The position numbers and the translations under genes are program-made. Shown piece by piece: positions 13,579 through 50,871 of a stretch of DNA of 64,000 bases. The stretch is from a virus. The notes under the pieces are model-generated. The model saw only the letters and a program-made list of their open reading frames with translations, was not told where the DNA came from and did not search any database. Each line of letters opens with the position of its first letter. Within the stretch, counting starts at the first letter, position 1. The stretch lies in the IMG/VR virus record IMGVR_UViG_3300034105_001970; one strand, 5' to 3'.

Positions 13579-13599
13579 CAAAACTTAGTAGTATCTTTA
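13568..13599 (+). promoter_or_regulatory. Bacteroidota-type promoter
   Basis: TTTG-N20-TATCTTTAAGTATA (same extended -7 as 54869 and 58410 promoters). Confidence 0.5.
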
Positions 13600-18706: not shown

Positions 18707-19144
18707 ATGATTAAATGGAAACGTGATATGCAAGAGAGTTACAATTTATATTTAGATGATATTAGAGAACCTAAAGCATCCTTTAAAAAAAGTGGTGATA
18801 GTAGGTATAAAGATTTAAAATGGAAAGTAGTTAGGTCTTATGGTGAATTTATAGGAACAATCGCACTTAATGGCCTCCCTAATATTGTATCGTTTGACCA
18901 CGATTTAGGTGAGGAACATATAAACTACTATTTTGATAATGGTGGTAGAGAAAATCCACCTGACCCATTAAAAGCAGATTTCAAAGAAAAAACGGGATAT
19001 GATTGTGCAAAATGGTTAATTGAATATTGTAGTGAAAATGGTTTACCAATGCCTACATATTTAATACATTCAGCAAATCCGGTAGGTGCTGAAAACATTA
19101 GGTCTATATTGAATAGATACAACGAAATACACCAATTTACCTAA
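18707..19144 (+). CDS. hypothetical protein
   Basis: 145-aa ORF; stop followed at +4 by 13-nt palindrome ATTGATAATCAAT. Confidence 0.4.
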   Translation: MIKWKRDMQESYNLYLDDIREPKASFKKSGDSRYKDLKWKVVRSYGEFIGTIALNGLPNIVSFDHDLGEEHINYYFDNGGRENPPDPLKADFKEKTGYDCAKWLIEYCSENGLPMPTYLIHSANPVGAENIRSILNRYNEIHQFT

Positions 19145-19147
19145 CTA

Positions 19148-19160
19148 ATTGATAATCAAT
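19148..19160. promoter_or_regulatory. 13-nt perfect palindrome ATTGATAATCAAT (operator-like)
   Basis: Same palindrome family recurs at 22023, 30042, 30067, 38530; flanking AACTAATTGATwATCAATG is conserved between the 19148 and 22023 copies. Confidence 0.4.
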
Positions 19161-19236
19161 GACTTATCTATATTAGAATAAACGCTAATGTGTAACTAAC
19201 TGAATATCAGTACCTTACAAAATACTTTCCAAAATG

Positions 19237-19856: not shown

Positions 19857-22001
19857 ATGAGTTGGTATGACAGTTTTAAGACGGGTACTTTAGATTATTT
19901 AACTAAAGGTTCGTACACTAGTAAAAAGAAAGAGAAAAAATCAGCGAGTTCATTTTGGGCTGATGAATGGAGTTCCTATGACACACCTACTACATATTGG
20001 GGTGGTGATACTTGGAAACCAAAAGAGTACAATAAGGTAGAAAGCAGTACTGCTGACCTTATTAAGTTGAATGCACATAGGAGAGCAATTGCTAACTTTG
20101 TGAACATTCTTACAAACAAAAACATTCCTGTAAAGTTTTCGCGTAAAGGTGATTCTTATACTGATGGTAAATCGGTAGTATTATCAGCTGAGGTTAAACC
20201 TGAAAAGTTTGATATCGCGGTAGGTTTGGCATTGCACGAAGCATCACACATTGTTCTTACGGACTTTGAATTAATGCCTGCTTATTCTGCACCAACCGAA
20301 ATGTTTAATAACTTTGCAAAAGCAGCGGGTTTAGATGTAAATGACCCTTCTTTTGATGGTACACAACATTATCGAAACAAAGAACAATTATTTGATGTAG
20401 TTAAATCATTGGTAAACTTTGTAGAGGATAGAAGGATTGACCAATATATCTACAATACTTGTCCAGGTTATAGAGACTATTATAGAGCATTGTATGATGA
20501 GTATTTCTATGATAAGACTATTGACAAAGGATTGATAAGTGATGAATATACGGATGAAACATTACAATCGTATATGTTCCGTATTATCAATATCACAAAT
20601 CAAAATACTGACCTTAACAAATTGAAAGGTTTGAAAGAAATCTACGAAACATTAGACCTTAAGAATATTAGTAGATTAAAAAATACAACCGATTCATTAG
20701 AGGTAGCAGAAAAGATTACCAACACTATCTTACAACATATCTTAGTTGATTTAAGTAAAGATGGTAAAGGTAAGGGTAATGGTGACCCTGCAGATGTAAA
20801 CGAAGCAGGTAATGAAACTGGAGCAGAGGCAGGTGATAAACAAAACGATGAAATGGGTGGTAGTGGTGGTGATGCACCTGTGATGGGTGAGAAAGGTGAC
20901 TCTACGAGTGGTGCTTCACAAACTGGTAATGGTAAAGATTTAATGAGTGATACTGCTAAGAAACAATTGGATAAACAAATCCAAAAGCAAAAGGACTTCG
21001 TTAATAACAATATCAAAAAGAAAGGATTAACTAAGAAAGAGGATGAAACCTTAGACCAAATGGCTGAGAGTGGAACTGAAATGCAATCCGTAGGTGATAC
21101 TAAATTAGAGAATGGTGGATATATTCAACCGGTTCAATGTATCGTATCTAAGAAAATGACCGAAGGATTGATGCAAGATAGTTCGTTCCCTTTCGCTAGT
21201 TTTTGGAATGATAAATGGAATAACTGGAATGCTGATACTTTACAAAGAGGTATCGTAATGGGTACTATTTTAGGTAAGCGTATTGCAGTTCGTAGTGAGG
21301 AAAGAGAAACAATCAATCCACGCCAAAAGAATGGTAGAATTGATAAGAGAATGGTAGCGGCATTAGGATATGATTATGTAAATGTATTCAGTACCAAAGA
21401 AGTAGATAGGTTTAAGAAAGTAATGTTGCACGTTACTATTGATGGTAGTGGTTCAATGAGTGGTAGTGTGTGGGATGATACATTAGCCGTAACAATTGCT
21501 ATTTGTAAAGCAGCATCAATGGTAAGTAACTTAAATGTACAAGTTTCTATCAGAGGTACGTGGGGTGATAAACCTTACATATGTATTGCGTATGATAGTA
21601 GATTTGATAAGTTTGAGAAAGTTAAGAGATTGTTTCCTGCATTACACGCCAATGGTACAACACCTGAAGGTTTATGTTATCAAGCGATACTTAAACATTT
21701 TGTAGAGAGCAACAAAGATATGGATTCTTATTTCTTAAACATATGTGATGGTGAGCCAACATTCTCAAATCAACAATGTTCTTATAGTGGTAGAAACGCT
21801 TTGTTACACACTAAGAAAATGGTAGGACAAATCAAAGATATGGGTATACAAGTTATGAGTTACTTTGTTGGTGGCAGTTCATATAGTAGTTCATCTGACA
21901 ACTTTAAAACAATGTACGGAAGTGACAGCCGTTTTATTGATGTTAAACAAATCGTTCCTATCATTAAAACAATGAATGAGCTTTTTATGAAAAAAGCGTA
22001 A
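19857..22001 (+). CDS. VWA-domain protein, CobT-like partner of MoxR-type AAA+ ATPase
   Basis: C-terminal MIDAS HVTIDGSGSMSG; central Gly/Asp/Lys-rich acidic low-complexity region; adjacent to the AAA+ gene. Confidence 0.6.
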   Translation: MSWYDSFKTGTLDYLTKGSYTSKKKEKKSASSFWADEWSSYDTPTTYWGGDTWKPKEYNKVESSTADLIKLNAHRRAIANFVNILTNKNIPVKFSRKGDSYTDGKSVVLSAEVKPEKFDIAVGLALHEASHIVLTDFELMPAYSAPTEMFNNFAKAAGLDVNDPSFDGTQHYRNKEQLFDVVKSLVNFVEDRRIDQYIYNTCPGYRDYYRALYDEYFYDKTIDKGLISDEYTDETLQSYMFRIINITNQNTDLNKLKGLKEIYETLDLKNISRLKNTTDSLEVAEKITNTILQHILVDLSKDGKGKGNGDPADVNEAGNETGAEAGDKQNDEMGGSGGDAPVMGEKGDSTSGASQTGNGKDLMSDTAKKQLDKQIQKQKDFVNNNIKKKGLTKKEDETLDQMAESGTEMQSVGDTKLENGGYIQPVQCIVSKKMTEGLMQDSSFPFASFWNDKWNNWNADTLQRGIVMGTILGKRIAVRSEERETINPRQKNGRIDKRMVAALGYDYVNVFSTKEVDRFKKVMLHVTIDGSGSMSGSVWDDTLAVTIAICKAASMVSNLNVQVSIRGTWGDKPYICIAYDSRFDKFEKVKRLFPALHANGTTPEGLCYQAILKHFVESNKDMDSYFLNICDGEPTFSNQQCSYSGRNALLHTKKMVGQIKDMGIQVMSYFVGGSSYSSSSDNFKTMYGSDSRFIDVKQIVPIIKTMNELFMKKA

Positions 22002-22022
22002 AAACACACTAAAACTTAACTA

Positions 22023-22035
22023 ATTGATTATCAAT
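22023..22035. promoter_or_regulatory. 13-nt perfect palindrome ATTGATTATCAAT (operator-like)
   Basis: Located 22 nt after the stop of the VWA gene; 21-nt context shared with 19148 copy. Confidence 0.4.
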
Positions 22036-22097
22036 GTGTTATACATTACCCTAAATGGATGTGTATAATGTGTTGATATTCAATAGGTTATAAATAG

Positions 22098-22130
22098 TTT
22101 TGGTAGTGTGGGCAGAATTTCGTATCTTTA
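22098..22130 (+). promoter_or_regulatory. Bacteroidota-type promoter
   Basis: TTTGGTAG -33, 21-nt spacer, TATCTTTA. Confidence 0.5.
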
Positions 22131-22176
22131 TGATATATCAAACAATAATTAAACAATAAACATTAAAAATTCAGTT

Positions 22177-23409
22177 ATGAGTAAAAAAGCAACACAAGAG
22201 TATGGTTACACAAATGAAGTGTACAAAGTAGAAAATCTTAAATCCCGTTTTAACTTAGTTAATACTGCGGGTGATGTATTAAGTAGTTCAGATTCTACAA
22301 TAGTAGGTAGTTCTTTACGAAAAAAAGCATCAGCACAAAATAAAGCAATTCGTGCGCATGTAAACAAAAACGGAGCTAAAAGCTATCGTATGGTAGAAAT
22401 GCAAGAATATACGGATATGTTGGTTAAGCCGATGAATACGGATATCGCTGAAACTATCGTAGAAAATCCAACGGAGCATAAAGATGTTATCGATTTCATT
22501 CATAAAGAGGGTATGGCGTTAAAACCTGCTAACTTAATTATGAACGAGTTGAAGTGGAAATATTTATTACGTTCAGCGGTTCGAGCGCGAAATATTATGA
22601 TGACAGGACCTGCGGGTAGTGGTAAGACAATGGCAGCTAAAGCATTAGTTGCGGCATTGAAAAGACCGTTTCATTACTTTAACTTAGGTGCGACGCAAGA
22701 CCCGAGGGCGGCATTAATTGGTAACACACACTTTAACAAAGCAAGTGGTACTTATTTTAGTGAGAGTGCATTCGTTAAAGCTATTAAGACACCTTACGCA
22801 GTTGTGTTATTAGATGAATTAAGTAGAGCTCATCCAGAAGCCGCTAATATCCTAATGACAGTGTTAGACCAAACACAAAGATACTTACGATTAGATGAGC
22901 AAGAAAATTCACCAATTGTTAAGGTGGCAGAAGGTGTTACCTTTATTGCAACTGCAAACATCGGTTCTGAATATACTGCAACGCGTGTAATGGATAGAGC
23001 ATTGTTAGATAGATTCGTGACAATTGAGGTAGATGTATTGAATGCTGAGCAGGAATATGAATTGTTAAAGATGTTATATCCTGATACGAATGATTACAAT
23101 TTGAAATCAGTAGCAGAGATTGCGGCACACACTAGAGACCAAATCAAAGGTGAGGCGGGTAAATTGACAACTGCTGTATCAACTCGTATTTCAGTAGAGA
23201 TGGCAGGTTTGTTGTATGATGGTTTCAGTTTGTTAGAAGCAGCTGAGGTAGCAATCTTCCCGTTCTATTCACAAGATGGTGGTATGGATAGTGAGCGTAC
23301 TTACATTAAGCAACTTATACAAAAATTCGTAGTAGATGAGAATGAAGGTGAAAAGTTATTCAACGAAGTGAAAGAGGAAGATGCGAATGACGATACTATT
23401 GTTTGGTAA
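22177..23409 (+). CDS. AAA+ ATPase, MoxR/CbbQ/CobS-like
   Basis: Walker A MMTGPAGSGKT, Walker B VVLLDELSRAHPEAANILMTVLDQ; pairs with upstream VWA gene. Confidence 0.7.
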   Translation: MSKKATQEYGYTNEVYKVENLKSRFNLVNTAGDVLSSSDSTIVGSSLRKKASAQNKAIRAHVNKNGAKSYRMVEMQEYTDMLVKPMNTDIAETIVENPTEHKDVIDFIHKEGMALKPANLIMNELKWKYLLRSAVRARNIMMTGPAGSGKTMAAKALVAALKRPFHYFNLGATQDPRAALIGNTHFNKASGTYFSESAFVKAIKTPYAVVLLDELSRAHPEAANILMTVLDQTQRYLRLDEQENSPIVKVAEGVTFIATANIGSEYTATRVMDRALLDRFVTIEVDVLNAEQEYELLKMLYPDTNDYNLKSVAEIAAHTRDQIKGEAGKLTTAVSTRISVEMAGLLYDGFSLLEAAEVAIFPFYSQDGGMDSERTYIKQLIQKFVVDENEGEKLFNEVKEEDANDDTIVW

Positions 23410-29977: not shown

Positions 29978-30036
29978 TAATACATAAAATAAGGGTTGAT
30001 ATTATATAAAAATGTAATATAATAACTCAAATTCCT

Positions 30037-30084
30037 AACCCATTGATTATCAAAGAGTTATAACTTATTGATTCTCAATGGGTT
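30037..30084. promoter_or_regulatory. 48-bp near-palindrome built from ATTGAT half-sites around central AGTTATAACT
   Basis: AACCCATTGA...TCAATGGGTT 10-bp perfect outer arms; 21/25 symmetric positions per arm; contains two ATTGATTnTCAA(T/A) copies. Confidence 0.45.
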
Positions 30085-30127
30085 ATATATGTCTATAACT
30101 TTTTACCCATATATAAAAAAATCATAT

Positions 30128-30245
30128 ATGTAACTCATTGATAGTCAGTCAAAAATCTTTGAAAAACCTAAAAATAGTTACTTTGGCCTGTTCAAAGTCC
30201 AATATAAAGTCGTATCTTTATGTATTGAGTCGAGAGAATGGGTAG
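30128..30245 (+). repeat. regulatory module, copy 1 (homologous to 38523-38625)
   Basis: About 110 bp shared with 38.5-kb copy; 41-nt core CAATATAAAGTCGTATCTTTATGTATTGAGTyGAGAGAATG differs at 1 position. Confidence 0.5.
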
Positions 30246-30426
30246 TCACATAGTAAAATTTTATAATATGAATAGTGTAACATTTCAGTTCAACATTGAA
30301 TTTGAATTTAAAGATGAATCTAAATTAGATAATCTGGCAAAACAATTACAAACAGTCTTAGATAGTTTTTCTATTGAAGATAGAAAGTTTGAAATAGTAT
30401 TTAAACATAATGAAGAAACTAAATAA
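30238..30426 (+). CDS. hypothetical small protein
   Basis: 62-aa ORF starting inside conserved module; followed by terminator. Confidence 0.3.
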   Translation: MGSHIVKFYNMNSVTFQFNIEFEFKDESKLDNLAKQLQTVLDSFSIEDRKFEIVFKHNEETK

Positions 30427-30431
30427 AAAAT

Positions 30432-30457
30432 TGTGGGTTTATCCCACATTTTTTTTC
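30432..30457 (+). terminator. intrinsic terminator
   Basis: GTGGG-TTTAT-CCCAC hairpin then TTTTTTTT. Confidence 0.55.
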
Positions 30458-30479: not shown

Positions 30480-31328
30480 ATGAATAACACAATGAAGTTT
30501 ACAACAATTGGTAATGCTAAAAAGCAAACGGGTTTATCTTATTTAGGTAGTGTAGCGAGCAGTTCAAAAATCGCTAAAGGGTTAAAGTACAATGAAATGA
30601 CTTACATATTGTATCTTGCTCCTGCTGAACAAAGTGGTTACAATGTTTGTCCGGGTTCTACGGCTGAATGTAGAGAAGCTTGTTTAACTGAAAGTGGACA
30701 CAATAGAATTGATGTTAAGAAAAACGCAATCAATAAAGCTCGTATCAAAAAAACTAAATTGTTCTTTGAGCAGAGAGAGTTCTTTATGGGTTGGTTAGTA
30801 GCTGAGATTAGTAAAGCTAAAGCTGATGCAATTGCTAAAGGTTTTACATTTTCAGTTAGATTAAATGGCACATCCGATATTCAGCCAACATTGTTTAAAT
30901 TCAATGGTAAAGTGATTTTCGATATATTCAACGAAGTGACATTTTATGATTATACTAAGGTTGCTAATCGCTTTAAGTTGTTAGATAAGTATTCTAACTA
31001 TGATTTGACTTATTCTTTTAGTGGTTACAATATGTTACAATCATTAGAGTTATTAGAAAATAATAAAGGTAGAGTTGCTATGGTATTTGAAGGTAAACAA
31101 TTACCAATATCATTTATGGGTTATAAAGTAATTGATGGTGATGCATACGATATGAGACACTTAGATGAGACGGGTGTAATTGTAGGATTGAAGTTTAAGT
31201 TTGTTAGAACTAAGATTGATACTGCACATAACAAATTCATTATCCCTATGGATAGCAAGTTTAGTGTGTATGATGTTAATCCAATGATAACAAAAGCCGC
31301 TCAAAGTAAATTAGTAAAAGTAAAATAG
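30480..31328 (+). CDS. hypothetical protein
   Basis: 282-aa ORF; Cys cluster CPGSTAECREAC; no family recognised. Confidence 0.4.
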   Translation: MNNTMKFTTIGNAKKQTGLSYLGSVASSSKIAKGLKYNEMTYILYLAPAEQSGYNVCPGSTAECREACLTESGHNRIDVKKNAINKARIKKTKLFFEQREFFMGWLVAEISKAKADAIAKGFTFSVRLNGTSDIQPTLFKFNGKVIFDIFNEVTFYDYTKVANRFKLLDKYSNYDLTYSFSGYNMLQSLELLENNKGRVAMVFEGKQLPISFMGYKVIDGDAYDMRHLDETGVIVGLKFKFVRTKIDTAHNKFIIPMDSKFSVYDVNPMITKAAQSKLVKVK

Positions 31329-35854: not shown

Positions 35855-36231
35855 TGAAAACAAAAACATATTTTAGTGAGTTCAAAAGTGATGTTGCAGT
35901 TGCAATACTAACCAAAGATGACTACCGATATGAAGTAATGAAACCACTATTTGAACAATGTGGTTTTGGTTTCGCTGAGACAAGTTCGGGTTGTGTATTC
36001 ATAGATGGTGAAGTGAAATTGACCAAAGATGAATTGTGGTGGGTAGAAGCACATGAAGTAGCACACATAATGTTGAAACACACAAAGGATAGAAACGAAA
36101 GTGATGAAGTTGCGGCTGATATGTATTCAATCATATTACTATTAGATAAAGGGTATAAGAAAGCAGCACAATTAGTAGAGGATAAATTTGAAGAAAGACA
36201 TAAAAGAAAATATTATGAAACTAACAATTAA
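35854..36231 (+). CDS. small HExxH-motif protein (ImmA/IrrE-like metallopeptidase candidate)
   Basis: WWVEAHEVAHIMLKH. Confidence 0.35.
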   Translation: MKTKTYFSEFKSDVAVAILTKDDYRYEVMKPLFEQCGFGFAETSSGCVFIDGEVKLTKDELWWVEAHEVAHIMLKHTKDRNESDEVAADMYSIILLLDKGYKKAAQLVEDKFEERHKRKYYETNN

Positions 36232-38472: not shown

Positions 38473-38522
38473 TATTAGGTATCATATAATAAAAAATACT
38501 AATATGATAAGGTTATATTGAC

Positions 38523-38625
38523 GTAACTAGTTGATTCTCAATAAAAACTTTTAAAATTAGTTCACTTTGGGCATTGCCAATTCAATATAAAGTCGTATCT
38601 TTATGTATTGAGTTGAGAGAATGAC
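38523..38625 (+). repeat. regulatory module, copy 2 (homologous to 30128-30245)
   Basis: gTTGATTCTCAAT palindrome variant, TTCACTTTGGGC, then the 41-nt core with CGTATCTTTATG. Confidence 0.5.
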
Positions 38626-38652
38626 TACTCATATAATAAAAAATCATAATAT

Positions 38653-38991
38653 ATGCTAACACTAAATAATATAGAAAAATTAAAAAATACATACATTGGA
38701 AAATGGGAAGTCTTGGGAGTAGAAGTATGTGGTGCTAGTGAACATCACATAAACGCAGACCATTATAATATTCGTTTAAGTAGAAATAGTAATAGTAAAG
38801 ATAGTGTTGGTGCCGCTATTCAAATTGAAAGAAAAGCAGGGGAATTTGGTTATAATATTTGCGTATGTTATGAACACTATGATAAATTTATTTCAATTAC
38901 AGCATGGCCGAAAGATAGATTACTAGATAAAAAGAATTTCTTAGCTTCAATGCAAGGGATTTTAGATGCCGAATATGATAAACGTAAATAA
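38653..38991 (+). CDS. MLTIKN-family small protein (variant MLTLNNIEKL)
   Basis: Divergent N-terminal decapeptide; first gene after module copy 2. Confidence 0.4.
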   Translation: MLTLNNIEKLKNTYIGKWEVLGVEVCGASEHHINADHYNIRLSRNSNSKDSVGAAIQIERKAGEFGYNICVCYEHYDKFISITAWPKDRLLDKKNFLASMQGILDAEYDKRK

Positions 38992-46205: not shown

Positions 46206-46877
46206 ATGAAAAATAAACTTTGGGTATTTGGCTGTTCGTTTTCAACCGGAATGAATTTGATTCAACCTACTGATGAAGATACATTAAGAATTAGTTGGCC
46301 GTATGTATTGGCGGATAAATTAGATTTAGAATTAGTAAATAGTGCACGTCCTGGACAATGTAATTGGGTATCTATATTGCAATTCATAGATAGGAGAGAT
46401 GAAATTCAGCCAGGCGATAAGGTTGTATTTGAATTTACATTCTTTGATAGGTATAATATTTATCCAACAAAAGCACAATTAATAGATTTAGAAGCTTATT
46501 TTAGTAGACATTCTAATGGTGGAACATTTGCAGATAATTTAGTAGAAATGAGGAAGGTTAATTATAATTGGTTTAATAAACAAGTAAACAATTGGTGTAT
46601 TAAAAAAAAAATATCAATTTACTATTGGAGTGCAGAAGGACAAGTTCATTCAGATTTTAAAAAATACAAAGAGATTATTACTTTTATACCTGCACCCAAT
46701 TCAACAAACGAATTTACAAACTATTCGTTTTATACAAAGTGGCAAGACCAATTAGAGGAACAACATATTATAGAACCGAATGGTAATATTGATAAACATT
46801 TTAATGAGTTAGGACATCAACGAATGGCTAATCATTTTTTTGAATATATTAATACTTATAGGAAATCGTTATTATGA
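46206..46877 (+). CDS. SGNH/GDSL-hydrolase-like paralogue
   Basis: LWVFGCSFSTGMN block I variant (Asp to Cys), DKHFNELGHQRMANHF block V-like; C-terminal 20 codons identical to next gene. Confidence 0.5.
   Translation: MKNKLWVFGCSFSTGMNLIQPTDEDTLRISWPYVLADKLDLELVNSARPGQCNWVSILQFIDRRDEIQPGDKVVFEFTFFDRYNIYPTKAQLIDLEAYFSRHSNGGTFADNLVEMRKVNYNWFNKQVNNWCIKKKISIYYWSAEGQVHSDFKKYKEIITFIPAPNSTNEFTNYSFYTKWQDQLEEQHIIEPNGNIDKHFNELGHQRMANHFFEYINTYRKSLL
46818..46877 (+). repeat. 60-bp direct repeat, copy 1 (3' ends of tandem SGNH genes)
   Basis: CAACGAATGGCTAATCATTTTTTTGAA(T/C)ATATTAATACTTATAGGAAATCGTTATTATGA; second copy 47588-47647; 1 mismatch. Confidence 0.7.
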
Positions 46878-47647
46878 ATAAGTTATGGATTTTCGGTGAT
46901 AGTTTTTCACATGGGCACGGCTTTAATAATTCTGACCCATTCTATGAAGTTACTTTATCCGATGATATTGATAAAAGATATTGGTGTGAAATAGTAGCAC
47001 ATGAATTAAATTTGGAACTACATAATCACGCTAGAGTAGGTGCATCCAATGACTATATATTGGACAACATTTTAAATAACGCAGATAAGATTGGAGAAAA
47101 CGATTATGTTGTAATCCAAGCTACATATTATAGTAGATTTGATGTTCCACACAAAAGCTCATTTAGTTTTTTACATACAATTGTTAGATATGATGATAGT
47201 AGACATATTAACGTAAACTTAATAGGTGATGATGATATGACTGACCATAAACACGAAACATTAGTAGATTTTGCAGTTTATTTTGCAGGATTACCGGCAT
47301 ACAAACACAGACAACTTAATAGATTTGAAAAATTAATAAATTTACTAAAAACAAAAAATGTTGTATTTTGGTGTTTAGAATCTCCAGATTCTCCAAATAT
47401 ACATGAAATTGAAATTCTAAAAAAACCATACTTTCTTAAATTTGAGAACAAATATATAGGTGGAGAGGATTGTTTCAAAGAACACAAAGCAACTATTTCC
47501 GATGAAAGTAATGGTAAGATGCAAGATGGACATATTGGTGTAAAAGGACAACAAATCATGTCAGTAGAAATACTAAAAAAGTTTAACCAACGAATGGCTA
47601 ATCATTTTTTTGAACATATTAATACTTATAGGAAATCGTTATTATGA
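46874..47647 (+). CDS. SGNH/GDSL-hydrolase-like paralogue
   Basis: LWIFGDSFSHGHG (GDS-x-x-xG), QDGHIGVKGQQIM (DGxH). Confidence 0.55.
   Translation: MNKLWIFGDSFSHGHGFNNSDPFYEVTLSDDIDKRYWCEIVAHELNLELHNHARVGASNDYILDNILNNADKIGENDYVVIQATYYSRFDVPHKSSFSFLHTIVRYDDSRHINVNLIGDDDMTDHKHETLVDFAVYFAGLPAYKHRQLNRFEKLINLLKTKNVVFWCLESPDSPNIHEIEILKKPYFLKFENKYIGGEDCFKEHKATISDESNGKMQDGHIGVKGQQIMSVEILKKFNQRMANHFFEHINTYRKSLL
47588..47647 (+). repeat. 60-bp direct repeat, copy 2
   Basis: See 46818-46877. Confidence 0.7.
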
Positions 47648-48375
47648 AAGTTTTAGTTATCGGTGATAGTTGTACTGATGTATTTGTATATGGTTATTGT
47701 AAAAGATTATGTCCCGAAGGACCTGTGCCAATATTTGAACCGAGTAGAACAATTACCAATATGGGTATGAGTGGTAATGTAGTAGCTAATCTTAAATCGT
47801 TGGGAGCTGAGAAAGTTGAGTTGGTTACTAACAAAGAACAAATTACAAAGACTAGATATGTAGAGGAAAAAGCAAATCATATGATTATCAGAATTGATAG
47901 TAATGATAAGGTTAGTAATTCATTTGATGTAAAAAGAGTTCCATTCAATGATTATGATGCAGTTATTGTAAGTGATTATGACAAAGGATTTCTATCATTA
48001 TCAGATTTGAAATTGATTAGTGATTCACATCCATTAACTTTTATAGATACAAAGAAACCATTATCAGCAGAAATGCGTAATTATACATTCATTAAGATAA
48101 ATGAAGTTGAGTGGGAAAATTGTAAAGGACAGGAATACGAAATGTGGCGAGAAAGATTAATTATAACAATGAGTGAACGAGGTGCAATGTATGATGGTAT
48201 TACATATCCGGTTAACAACGATATTGAGGTTAGAGATTTGAGTGGTGCAGGTGATACCTTTATGGCTTCATTAGTAGTTAGTTATTTAAAAACAAAAAGT
48301 ATAGAAGTTAGTATTGAATACGCAAATGATTGTGCAACAAAAGTTGTACAAAAACGTGGTGTAGTTACATTGTAA
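47644..48375 (+). CDS. PfkB-family sugar kinase, RfaE domain I / HldA-like (heptose 7-phosphate kinase family)
   Basis: VLVIGDSCTDVFVYGYCKRLCPEGPVPIF aligns with RfaE-I N-terminus (ILVVGD...SPEAPVPV); DLSGAGDTFMASLV anion-hole/GAGD motif. Confidence 0.7.
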   Translation: MKVLVIGDSCTDVFVYGYCKRLCPEGPVPIFEPSRTITNMGMSGNVVANLKSLGAEKVELVTNKEQITKTRYVEEKANHMIIRIDSNDKVSNSFDVKRVPFNDYDAVIVSDYDKGFLSLSDLKLISDSHPLTFIDTKKPLSAEMRNYTFIKINEVEWENCKGQEYEMWRERLIITMSERGAMYDGITYPVNNDIEVRDLSGAGDTFMASLVVSYLKTKSIEVSIEYANDCATKVVQKRGVVTL

Positions 48376-48410
48376 TAATAAAAACATATATTTATATAAA
48401 ACAAAACAAA

Positions 48411-48677
48411 ATGATAAATTTAGAAGCATTTGGACCATTTTTAGAGCACGCTGGAAATGTAGAATTAGTAGAAGCAAAATTATTTGGACTTATTGTATTA
48501 AATAAAGATAATACATTTTCAACAATAACAATTGCTGAAGACGAATTAGTGAAATACGAACATGTTAATTTTTTAGACATCGAAGATGATGAATTAAAAG
48601 AAAGATTAGTAGAAGAAGCACATTTAGTAAGTATTTCAAATCCAGCATGGCCTATTGCTAAGTTGATTGAATGGTAG
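48411..48677 (+). CDS. hypothetical small acidic protein
   Basis: Track ORF 48330 overlaps the kinase; first in-frame ATG after kinase stop is 48411. Confidence 0.3.
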   Translation: MINLEAFGPFLEHAGNVELVEAKLFGLIVLNKDNTFSTITIAEDELVKYEHVNFLDIEDDELKERLVEEAHLVSISNPAWPIAKLIEW

Positions 48678-48694
48678 TATATTAATACTAAATA

Positions 48695-49426
48695 ATGGTT
48701 ACACAAAATAAATTATGGTGCTTCGGTGATTCGTTTACCGCAGGTGATGGGTGTATTCGGTCACCTAAAGAAAACCCATATTCACCAACTACGATTTCGT
48801 ATAGAAAATATTTAAACAAACAGGATGGAGAGGAAATTCTAATCTATCCTGATTATGTGTCTAACCATTTCAATTTAGAATTAATCAATACAGCTAGTGG
48901 TGGTGCATCAAATGAAATGATATTTGATAATGTATTTACACATATAAAAGATATAAAGAAAGATGATTATATTATAATTGGAATATCTTATTTTGAAAGA
49001 TTTGATGTTTTCATAAATAATATATTATCACCAACTAACATAAATAGTATATCAACAACATCGGATATTGTATTTCAAAATAATGCTTTAAGTAGACAAG
49101 GATTATTAGAAATTGTAAACAATAGAAATAATAAAGTATTTAAAGATAGATTGATTCGACAAATCAAAGCAGTAAAATATTTATTAAATTCGATATGTGA
49201 TAATGTATGTATATGGACACATGATAATGATATATTAGATGGTGTAGATACCGACGTATTTTTAATACCAGATAAATATAAAAAATTTAGTTCATTTGTA
49301 TATGATAATAAAATGGCATTAGCACAAGAAACAAATGGTGAGGTTCCCGATGGACATTTTGGTGCACCCGGTCACAAACTTTGGGCAGATATTATAATAA
49401 AATATTTTGAAAATGGAACAAAATAA
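48695..49426 (+). CDS. SGNH/GDSL-hydrolase-like paralogue
   Basis: LWCFGDSFTAGDG and PDGHFGAPGHKLWADII. Confidence 0.55.
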   Translation: MVTQNKLWCFGDSFTAGDGCIRSPKENPYSPTTISYRKYLNKQDGEEILIYPDYVSNHFNLELINTASGGASNEMIFDNVFTHIKDIKKDDYIIIGISYFERFDVFINNILSPTNINSISTTSDIVFQNNALSRQGLLEIVNNRNNKVFKDRLIRQIKAVKYLLNSICDNVCIWTHDNDILDGVDTDVFLIPDKYKKFSSFVYDNKMALAQETNGEVPDGHFGAPGHKLWADIIIKYFENGTK

Positions 49427-50090
49427 TATTTGGATATTTGGATGTTCACATTCTACTACTATTTGGAAAGATGAAGCAAAAACCGATGGTATAAAACCAT
49501 ATGGAAAATATTTAAGTGAATGGTTTGATTTAAAATATAATCAACCGGATAAGAGTGGACAAGGTAATGATAGTATTGTTACCGAAATCTTTAAAAATAT
49601 CAATAACATAAAAAAAGATGATTTACTAATAGTACAATTTACACATTTTAGTAGGTCCGTTTGGTATGATACACAGCAAAAAGAAATATACAACGGTGCA
49701 TGGGCAGAACGTAAAGGAATTAATCCAAATCCAAATGATATTAATAATGAAAGTTGGTATAAAATTACAGACCTAAAATCACAACATCCAATAATACAAA
49801 CACATATTTTCTTAAAAGAATTAAGTAAATTGATTGGATTTAAATATTATGTGTTTTTCTATGAAGATTGGATGTGTAAAGATTACGAATACTTTTTTAG
49901 AGAGGATGTAAATTCAAAAGTTACAATAAAATTTGGTGATGAACAATTTAATACATTGGGTAGATACACTAAGCATTATAAATTAACAACTTTGGCGGAA
50001 AGTGGTGAAATGCAAGATGGTCATATGAGTACGGAATCACATAGACGAGTTGCAGAAATGATACACAAATACATAAATGAAAATGGATAA
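49407..50090 (+). CDS. SGNH/GDSL-hydrolase-like paralogue
   Basis: IWIFGCSHSTTI and QDGHMSTESHRRVAEMI. Confidence 0.5.
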   Translation: MKMEQNNIWIFGCSHSTTIWKDEAKTDGIKPYGKYLSEWFDLKYNQPDKSGQGNDSIVTEIFKNINNIKKDDLLIVQFTHFSRSVWYDTQQKEIYNGAWAERKGINPNPNDINNESWYKITDLKSQHPIIQTHIFLKELSKLIGFKYYVFFYEDWMCKDYEYFFREDVNSKVTIKFGDEQFNTLGRYTKHYKLTTLAESGEMQDGHMSTESHRRVAEMIHKYINENG

Positions 50091-50871
50091 GTTATACATA
50101 TATGGATGTTCACATAGTGCCGGCAATCTATTAGGATATTCACACTTTGAAGATCCAGGATTACCTAGAATAAAGAATGATATTAATTTTATGGAAACTG
50201 ACTATACCAAATGGTTAGGTAGAAAGGGAATGCCATTTTTTGAAATAATAGCAAATGAATTGAACTTAGATTGGATATTAAGAGCAGAAGGTGGTGATAG
50301 TAATTCACAACAATTTAAAAAGCTATTAAAAGACCTACCAAATATAAAAGAAAATGATGTTGTATTATTTCAATTAACACATTATCATAGATTTGAAGTT
50401 CCGTATAAAAACAATGAAGGAAAGTGGGAAACTACTGCATTTCAAGCCGGCGGTAGTTTAAAATATGATAATGATAAATATCGTCAATTTTATATGGCAC
50501 ATTTAGATTTTGAAGATTGGATATCGATAAATTCTGTTGTAATAATATTATCATTATTAAATTACATTAAAAGTAATGTAACTAAAAATGTATTTTTATG
50601 GAGTTATCCAAATATAGAGCAGTGTATAAAAGAAAATACATCTATATTAAATTTTCCTAATTTAATTAAATTTGAATGTGACAGAGGAATTGTAGAAACG
50701 GCATATGAATGTAGTAATCATATAGATTGGAATACTGATTTGATTATTGAATTTGAAACTAATAAAATAGTAAAAGATTCACATTTTGGAGAAACTGGAC
50801 ATAAATTTATAGCCAAAAACATACTTAATTACATAAATCATAATACTTATATAAAAGAAAAAGGAGATTAA
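50077..50871 (+). CDS. SGNH/GDSL-hydrolase-like paralogue
   Basis: LYIYGCSHSAGN and KDSHFGETGHKFIAKNI. Confidence 0.5.
   Translation: MKMDKLYIYGCSHSAGNLLGYSHFEDPGLPRIKNDINFMETDYTKWLGRKGMPFFEIIANELNLDWILRAEGGDSNSQQFKKLLKDLPNIKENDVVLFQLTHYHRFEVPYKNNEGKWETTAFQAGGSLKYDNDKYRQFYMAHLDFEDWISINSVVIILSLLNYIKSNVTKNVFLWSYPNIEQCIKENTSILNFPNLIKFECDRGIVETAYECSNHIDWNTDLIIEFETNKIVKDSHFGETGHKFIAKNILNYINHNTYIKEKGD

Follow-up and report, generated by a model that had tools for sequence, protein, structure and literature searches.

The non-coding island at positions 29,978–30,237 of the virus record IMGVR_UViG_3300034105_001970 (IMG/VR) carries three copies of a 25-bp palindrome, which lie upstream of a promoter of the Bacteroidota type. 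We propose that the palindromes are sites for a host protein of the integration host factor (IHF)/HU family, or a similar dimeric DNA-bending protein, and that the island serves as the upstream architectural module of an early promoter. From the sequence comparisons below, we put the probability of this proposal at about one half. We are distinctly more confident of the broader claim that arrays of sites for a phylum-wide DNA-binding protein lie upstream of host-type promoters. On the identity of the binder as a member of the DNABII family, the odds appear even. Because the motif is in effect an IHF site doubled by reflection, the island most likely serves as an array of docking sites for a DNA-bending protein rather than as a replication origin. 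The record comprises 64,000 nt with 30% GC and is referred to as the window; positions are counted on the whole stretch.

The island contains three copies of a 25-bp palindrome

The preliminary description of the island had reported a 48-bp near-palindrome at 30037–30084. We recovered the quoted sequence exactly, including its perfect 10-bp outer arms (AACCCATTGA/TCAATGGGTT), which extend to 11 bp with T30036 and A30085, the central self-complementary AGTTATAACT (30056–30065), and both inner sites, ATTGATTATCAAA and ATTGATTCTCAAT. A repeat search returned a palindrome at 30036–30085, whose 28-nt arms overlap and are 86% complementary, together with a three-member direct-repeat family, TAAC-NN-ATTGAT-NN-TCA, at 30036, 30061, and 30131. 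From the repeat family and the overlapping arms, we conclude that the near-palindrome consists of two abutting 25-bp palindromic units of the form TAAC-NN-ATTGAT-W-ATCAAT-NN-GTTA, which fill 30036–30085 (sites 1 and 2). The third, degenerate site that had been noticed (ATTGATAGTCA, 30137–30147) is part of a half-degenerate unit at 30131–30155 (site 3). Its left, distal half is a perfect consensus, and its right, proximal half is replaced by the A-tract AGTCAGTCAAAAA. The island had also been named the longest non-coding stretch of the window, which is correct, as the sole longer gap in the map of open reading frames (ORFs; 48376–48694) holds an ORF with an ATG start. The next-longest gaps, 38473–38652 and 22002–22176, bear the motif as well, so that the three longest gaps of the window all carry it.

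The motif recurs in the window and is conserved in related phages

A 17-nt half pattern with up to two mismatches matched the window 25 times, against 7.6 ± 2.9 matches in shuffled sequences, and none of 100 shuffles reached 25. With a position weight matrix built from related phage sites, six window sites scored 16–32 bits; the best score in 20 shuffles was 13.3 bits. Good matches were confined to four intergenic gaps, at ~19.1, 22.0, 30.0, and 38.5 kb (Table 1). Every window site has at least one perfect WATCAR-N4-TTR half, and those starting at 19142, 22017, and 30036 have both. The gene 3′ of the 22.0-kb pair encodes an AAA_5 ATPase.

The gene that follows the island belongs to the GP88 family, and homologues were taken from 35 IMG/VR contigs. 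Conservation in relatives, on which the preliminary description had made its proposal depend, was borne out for the 25-bp sites. Most relatives at 74–94% GP88 identity keep one to six sites (six in locus L127), which are located 170–300 bp upstream of GP88. The layout in the relatives is the array, TTTGG..., tcGTATCTTTA, a leader, and ATG, in this order. Between these elements, the intergenic sequence diverges, and the number and spacing of the sites vary. The promoter-proximal site is consistently asymmetric in the relatives, with a consensus distal half and CAATAAAAAC or CAATGAACTTTTTT as the proximal half. Counted from a transcription start site (TSS) set 5 nt past the −7 box, its centre lies at −62 in one promoter class, at −72 in another, and at −82 in the window and relative L116. 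The window and L116 carry a 10-bp insertion, which leaves the proximal site on the same helical face. DNA of the 27–33 kb region gave no match to GenBank phages. Judged by the AAA_5 protein, the closest isolates were Microcystis phage Mel-JY01 and a 484-kb uncultured phage, and the motif was absent from the 40 kb inspected in both.

The sites lie upstream of host-type promoters

The housekeeping sigma factor of Bacteroidetes recognizes a −33 element, TTTG, and a −7 box, TAnnTTTG, with a canonical spacing of 19–21 nt and a box that ends at −5 (PMC6847099). The sequence cGTATCTTTAwG occurs in nine copies on the + strand of the window, at least eight of them 5′ of a start codon. In seven of the nine copies, TTTG is found exactly 20 nt upstream of TATCTTTA; the distance is 27 nt at 30212 and 26 nt at 38595. 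These two promoters thus lack a properly spaced −33 element, and the activity of the 30212 promoter may depend on an upstream factor. Palindromes are present upstream of four of the nine promoters, with centres from about −57 to −177. The site clusters start 0–59 nt past the preceding stop codon, and no canonical terminator intervenes.

The promoter family can be written as TTTG-N20-(c)GTATCTTTA(w)(g), with + strand members at 13591, 16201, 18134, 19260, 22122, 30212, 38595, 51873, 54892, and 58433. It is of the Bacteroidota −33/−7 type with A instead of G at −5, and its members are probably the early promoters of the phage, used by the host polymerase. A Shine–Dalgarno motif precedes only 9 of 106 start codons in the window and the leaders are A-rich, which is also typical of Bacteroidota. 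Nearly all major ORFs of the window are on the + strand.

The motif is common in uncultured phages and in Bacteroidota chromosomes

The exact pattern (20 specified bases) was present in 112 IMG/VR stretches, 66 of which have no protein in common with the window, and the reversed pattern, a palindrome of identical composition, gave no hit. Of 178 site clusters at phage loci, 62 are followed at 10–150 bp by a strict TTTG-N19-21-TAnnTTTR promoter, against ~4% expected from the promoter density. The enrichment of strict promoters is eightfold next to phage clusters and was not seen in bacteria.

In the GTDB genomes, we found the exact pattern in at least 120 bacterial stretches. Among the matches listed, 76 of 80 came from Bacteroidota, namely Cytophagales, Saprospiraceae, Bacteroidales, Flavobacteriales, and Sphingobacteriales. 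Genes shared with the phage were found at two of 120 loci from these stretches. The bacterial sites are intergenic, with just 23 of 318 located within ORFs, and their frequency per gap is similar for convergent (0.53), tandem (0.39), and divergent (0.42) gaps. The adjoining genes are unrelated (ftsZ, mnmE, parA, an aminotransferase, SpoU). An intergenic spread over all gap types beside unrelated genes is the pattern of a general host factor. As the motif is common in Bacteroidota chromosomes, its binder would be such a factor rather than a repressor of the phage. The simplest reading is a binder shared across the phylum, which would then most likely be host-encoded. When the genes beside the sites were clustered to look for an autoregulated binder, no common family emerged in bacteria, and only ordinary neighbours in phages.

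Two bacterial copies look like junctions of integrated elements, contexts in which IHF-type host factors act. In Emticicia (L161, 634–2218), a tRNA-Asp gene is followed by the palindrome and then by the gene of a CTnDOT-type tyrosine integrase (Arm-DNA-bind_5). In Chryseobacterium (L151, 4929–5362), the palindrome lies 11 nt past the 3′ end of the tmRNA. In the metagenome-assembled genome (MAG) JALONJ01 (Microscillaceae Prado074; L148–L223), there is ~1 site per 1.5 kb, in nearly every sampled gap and mostly as TAACTAATTGATWATCAATTAGTTA. Some of these copies are embedded in longer shared repeats, and some have extended palindromic flanks with A/T tracts.

The palindrome is conserved as primary sequence

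Covariation was tested at the symmetric N positions of 162 unique sites. No excess of Watson–Crick pairs was found (5/21, z = −0.9; 6/20, z = −2.2). Phage sites oriented by coding strand showed 383 non-wobble mismatches, against 161 G:U and 116 A:C combinations. The lack of pairing covariation indicates that the primary sequence is selected, and not a hairpin. The information resides in two 4-bp blocks per half, TAAC at ±9–12 and TTGA at ±2–5; there is none at the centre or past ~27 bp. Neighbouring sites tile at 25–30, 36–38, and 48–52 bp, and abutting pairs outside the homologous GP88 loci do not keep their outer arms complementary. The conserved proximal half sites cannot fold into a hairpin at all. 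Such a pattern of conserved blocks points to a dimeric DNA-binding protein and away from a structure in RNA or DNA. An Rfam covariance-model search of the window returned nothing at the gathering score and only miRNA-like chance matches (E ≥ 0.2), and a tRNA search of the window found none.

The 25-bp site resembles a symmetric IHF site

IHF kinks its DNA at bp 28/29 and 37/38, as reportedly described by Rice and coworkers in 1996. In the IHF site, two kinks 9 bp apart enclose WATCAR, the protein clamps TTR on one flank and can clamp an A-tract on the other, and T44 is the middle T of the TTG (bioRxiv 10.1101/382655). The position of T44 and the kink positions together would place the pseudo-dyad of IHF on the W, where the centre of the palindrome falls. 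The right half of the palindrome, W-ATCAA-T-NN-G-TTA, corresponds to the IHF consensus WATCAR-N4-TTR, and the left half to its reverse complement. Used as a regular expression on lambda attP, WATCAR-N4-TTR gave exactly three matches, which are H′, H2, and H1. Aligned W on W, H′ (aaaagcATTGcTTATCAATttGTTg) agrees with our motif at 19 of the 21 specified positions. As in H′, a consensus half is paired with an A/T tract in the asymmetric sites described here. An A4/T4 tract was present on the non-consensus side of 28 of 58 phage one-half sites, compared to 13 of 58 at a control position.

There are differences as well. Unlike E. coli IHF sites, the motif carries the consensus on both halves and is thus a true palindrome, as for a homodimer and not for an alpha/beta heterodimer. 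Moreover, it has an additional conserved C/G at ±9, its sites can abut at 25 bp, and it belongs to the phylum Bacteroidota. IHF sites sit upstream of the phage promoters lambda pL and Mu Pe. Likewise, the sites described here lie tens to ~180 bp ahead of phage early-type promoters, and in one bacterial copy at an integrase/tRNA junction. TF1 of Bacillus phage SPO1 is a phage-encoded HU-type protein that binds near early promoters and prefers hydroxymethyluracil DNA. Our candidate DNABII-type sites are similarly tied to phage early promoters; a DNABII gene was found neither in the window nor in the related loci.

IHF sites are also carried by repeats, namely the RIP and BIME-type clusters of repetitive extragenic palindromes (REPs) in E. 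coli and the Correia elements of Neisseria. Like these, the palindrome is a short extragenic element with a predicted nucleoid-protein site that is amplified between genes, as seen in the Microscillaceae MAG. It differs from them in that neither REP hairpins on its flanks nor terminal inverted repeats were seen, the motif extends over no more than ~27 bp, and the sequence is conserved phylum-wide.

Bacteroidetes carry one to three classical HU/IHF-clade proteins, among them BHFa of B. thetaiotaomicron, an IHF/HU-family host factor for the integration of CTnDOT (PMC6606824; PMC5499826). Our literature search turned up no consensus published for any sequence-specific nucleoid protein of Bacteroidota. 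The motif itself was absent from the literature covered by a limited search (core sequence, Bacteroidetes REPs, BHFa/DNABII). The novelty lies in the symmetric 25-bp form, in the phylum, and in the occurrence across many uncultured phages; nucleoid-protein sites at phage promoters and att sites are of a known kind.

Proposed function of the array

We infer protein binding, a host-encoded binder of the IHF/HU type, and an effect on transcription from the observations above, and they would fit together as follows. The island would be the upstream regulatory region of a host-type promoter (Bacteroidota sigma-A, −33/−7) that drives the small ORF and GP88. The three palindromes would be bound by a dimeric protein supplied by the host, for which a homodimeric IHF/HU-family (DNABII) protein is the likeliest candidate. 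Read as YAA-N4-TTGAT-W-ATCAA-N4-TTR, the 25-bp site is a two-fold symmetric IHF consensus whose dyad falls on W, which would suit a homodimer. The bound protein would sharply bend the DNA at about −82, −152, and −177, upstream of a promoter with a poorly placed −33 element. The asymmetric proximal site, with its conserved helical face, and the distal pair may then shape an upstream nucleoprotein structure that sets the strength or timing of the promoter by bringing upstream DNA or partners to RNA polymerase. Alternatively, this structure may insulate the promoter from read-through of the upstream operon, as the upstream gene and the array have no terminator between them.

More tentatively, and with less confidence than for the island itself, the palindrome may be an undescribed phylum-wide element of a Bacteroidota nucleoid protein, which is REP-like in some Cytophagales, occurs at integrase/att junctions, and has been co-opted by unrelated phages. 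Candidates for its binder would be a homodimeric IHF-like protein from the classical HU/IHF clade or one of the Bacteroidota-specific HU expansions.

How Bacteroidota and their phages control transcription has been poorly mapped, and their promoters, sigma factor, and translation signals are unlike the E. coli paradigm. The motif would be usable as a host-phylum marker for viral contigs and as a handle for early promoters. It is also a candidate site for BHFa-like IHF/HU proteins, which is relevant to the integration of conjugative transposons that bear resistance genes. If the binder is not a DNABII protein, the motif still marks a general DNA-binding factor of the phylum.

Several observations weigh against IHF/HU-type binding. 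Searches with Pfam and PHROGs on the neighbour genes and with Pfam on all window ORFs (concatenated) found no DNABII gene or regulator, and tblastn with HU and IHF queries against the window and all fetched loci found nothing either. The likeness to IHF is built on a short consensus and, for W as the dyad, on the reported kink positions. Abutment at 25 bp is tight for a protein with a footprint of more than 25 bp. The A-tract enrichment is missing in bacterial one-half sites (9/64 vs. 10/64), and over all loci the helical phasing of the site–promoter distance is weak and owes most to one homologous class. Isolate genomes show just one exact copy each. The REP-like density in the Microscillaceae MAG could reflect amplification of an element and not the binding of a factor. 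Finally, a winged-helix dimer of the MarR/Rrf2 type is a serious alternative that would fit equally well on a 25-bp site with two conserved blocks in each half, and the FabT box of Streptococcus has the same TTGATTATCAA.

Alternative explanations

The alternative that survives best, although we consider it unlikely, is an operator or activator array for a dimeric (winged-)helix-turn-helix (HTH) regulator encoded by the phage or belonging to a family that mobile elements share, with the CobT/CobS-like genes, GP88, and a ligase cluster as its regulon. Palindromes with two conserved 4-bp blocks per half, here TAAC and TTGA, are found in MarR/Rrf2-type sites, and the occurrence of strong pairs at just three loci in 64 kb is regulon-like. 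The proximal site at −62, −72, or −82 is positioned as for class I activators. The Streptococcus FabT (MarR) operator, ANTTTGATTATCAAATT, has an identical core to our motif; it belongs, however, to another phylum, serves a small dedicated regulon, and lacks the TAAC/GTTA outer blocks. An HTH protein or other regulator was not detectable in the window, and the reading does not predict the same motif in phages without common genes and beside chromosomal housekeeping genes in all gap types. Furthermore, the core promoter is never overlapped by sites. The multi-site operator of the preliminary description stands only in part. A multi-site protein-binding region is supported by a half-site that is conserved, recurs, is kept in relatives, and tiles at 25–50 bp. 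It is not a classical operator because all sites lie upstream of the core promoter and none over it.

Sites of the FNR/CRP family share with the motif the inverted TTGAT/ATCAA pentamers and the class I positions of the proximal site. The FNR box, TTGAT-N4-ATCAA, has a 4-bp spacer, whereas the spacer here is 1 bp, the outer TAAC/GTTA blocks are added, and the distribution over genomes is general; FNR was rejected on this 1-nt spacing. Comparison by eye with the sites of Fur, CRP, the ARG box, IscR, H-NS, CtrA, parS, and dif yielded no candidate.

We regard it as improbable that the palindrome acts as a REP-like nucleic-acid structure, either as a hairpin in the 3′ untranslated region for protection of 3′ ends or termination, or as an amplified selfish repeat. 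Such a role would agree with the start of the clusters close behind the upstream stop codon, a fold of the island with z = −5.8, a coding-strand count of G:U slightly above that of A:C, and the density and extended flanks of the copies in the Microscillaceae MAG. A hairpin is difficult to reconcile with the absence of covariation, the many non-wobble mismatches, and the conserved proximal half sites that are unable to pair. Divergent gaps, which have no 3′ ends, hold sites as often as tandem gaps. The phage copies are not followed by a U-tract, and the consensus has no GTAG/CGTC head. The motif is extragenic everywhere but of high copy number in only a few MAGs, its sequence is conserved phylum-wide, unlike the species-specific REPs, and it matches no Rfam family.

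An origin of replication with iteron-like repeats, which the preliminary description had considered, is very improbable. A long, AT-rich non-coding island with repeated sites would suit an origin, and IHF-type sites are common in replication origins. However, the same arrays occur at four or more loci within the 64 kb and in many chromosomal gaps, the gene orientation does not change, and a conserved promoter and gene follow the array in all relatives. The GC-skew analysis suggested in that description gave positive values throughout (0.12–0.32), with no turn near 30 kb.

Least probable is the cruciform-forming recombination (or packaging) site that had also been considered: the composite 50-bp near-palindrome with 11-bp perfect outer arms, and outer N positions that are often complementary (CC/GG) within GP88 loci, speak for a 48–50-bp palindrome as the functional unit, but the composite simply arises when two palindromic sites lie side by side, relatives with spacings of about 25–38 bp or more and one to six sites do not conserve the long palindrome as such, the complementarity of N positions and outer arms is lost outside the GP88 loci, and no recombinase gene is nearby.

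Features of the island and downstream genes

Table 1. Sites, promoter elements, and genes of the island and of the other motif-bearing gaps. Centres are relative to the predicted TSS.
Feature	Position	Strand	Remarks
Site pair	19142..19166 and 19193..19217	none	ahead of TTTG 19237-40 / −7 box 19261-68; centres −68, −119
Site pair	22017..22041 and 22066..22090	none	ahead of TTTG 22099-102 / −7 box 22123-30; centres −57, −106
Site 1	30036..30060	none	TAACCCATTGATTATCAAAGAGTTA; both halves fit WATCAR-N4-TTR; 31.3 bits; centre ~−177
Site 2	30061..30085	none	TAACTTATTGATTCTCAATGGGTTA; abuts site 1; best score in window, 32.5 bits; centre ~−152
A-rich spacer element	30104..30127	+	CCATATATAAAAAAATCATATATG; between sites 2 and 3; conserved (by eye in alignments)
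Site 3	30131..30155	none	TAACTCATTGATAGTCAGTCAAAAA; asymmetric, promoter-proximal; centre ~−82
Possible −33 element	30182..30185	+	TTTG; 27 nt from −7 box
−7 box	30213..30220	+	TATCTTTA; 7/8 positions of TAnnTTTG (A for final G); within conserved cGTATCTTTATG; predicted TSS ~30225
Small ORF	30238..30426	+	62 aa; second ATG, 30268, is the likelier start; missing from most relatives
Canonical intrinsic terminator	30432..30456	+	GC stem + T8; between small ORF and GP88 gene
GP88-family gene	30480..31328	+	PF17338; conserved gene 3′ of site array in relatives
Asymmetric site	38524..38548	none	TAACTAGTTGATTCTCAATAAAAAC; consensus half + A-tract; ahead of −7 box 38596-603; centre ~−72

The features are collected in Table 1. 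An element of the form ATATTA-N10-TAATAT / ATATATAAAAAAATCATATATG is conserved ahead of site 1 (29999–30020) and of site 3 (30104–30127), also in relatives L113–L140. It closely resembles the A-rich leader directly 5′ of the GP88 start codons of the relatives, tatataaaaaaattataatATG. A sigma-70-like sequence at 29996–30023, TTGATA-N16-TATAAT (11 of 12 positions), was rejected as the relevant promoter, since it is not conserved in relatives and the RNA polymerase of Bacteroidota uses another consensus. These hexamers are probably a chance product of AT-rich sequence.

The 62-aa ORF and the strong terminator between promoter and GP88 are present only in the window and in L116; in the other relatives, the promoter leader leads directly into GP88. 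The second ATG of the small ORF (30268, ...ttataatATGAAT) copies the start context of GP88. The position of GP88 behind a terminator and without a promoter of its own suggests that the gene is controlled by attenuation or read-through. Positions 30202–30240 and 38583–38621 form a 39-nt direct repeat with one mismatch. It spans the −7 box, the leader, and the ATG, is accompanied by ~20 nt of weaker similarity, and looks like a duplicated promoter/leader module. The copy at 38.6 kb starts just a 12-codon ORF ahead of the real gene at 38653.

The region 19857–23409 encodes a protein of 714 aa, which looks vWA/CobT-like by eye, and an AAA_5 ATPase of 410 aa (CobS/MoxR-like), and each gene is preceded by a site pair. 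Homologues of these two are among the window genes that most often adjoin exact sites in other IMG/VR contigs.

Other gene families in the window

Nine small paralogous ORFs of ~105–125 aa, at 36188, 37480, 38125, 38653, 57340, 57656, 57976, 61189, and 63514, share an N-terminal MLTIKN(F/Y)-like motif and had no Pfam match. Pfam likewise found no match for five or six paralogous ORFs of 220–265 aa at 46206–50871, which have an N-terminal (W/I)xFG(C/D)S(F/H)S motif and look GDSL/SGNH-like by eye.

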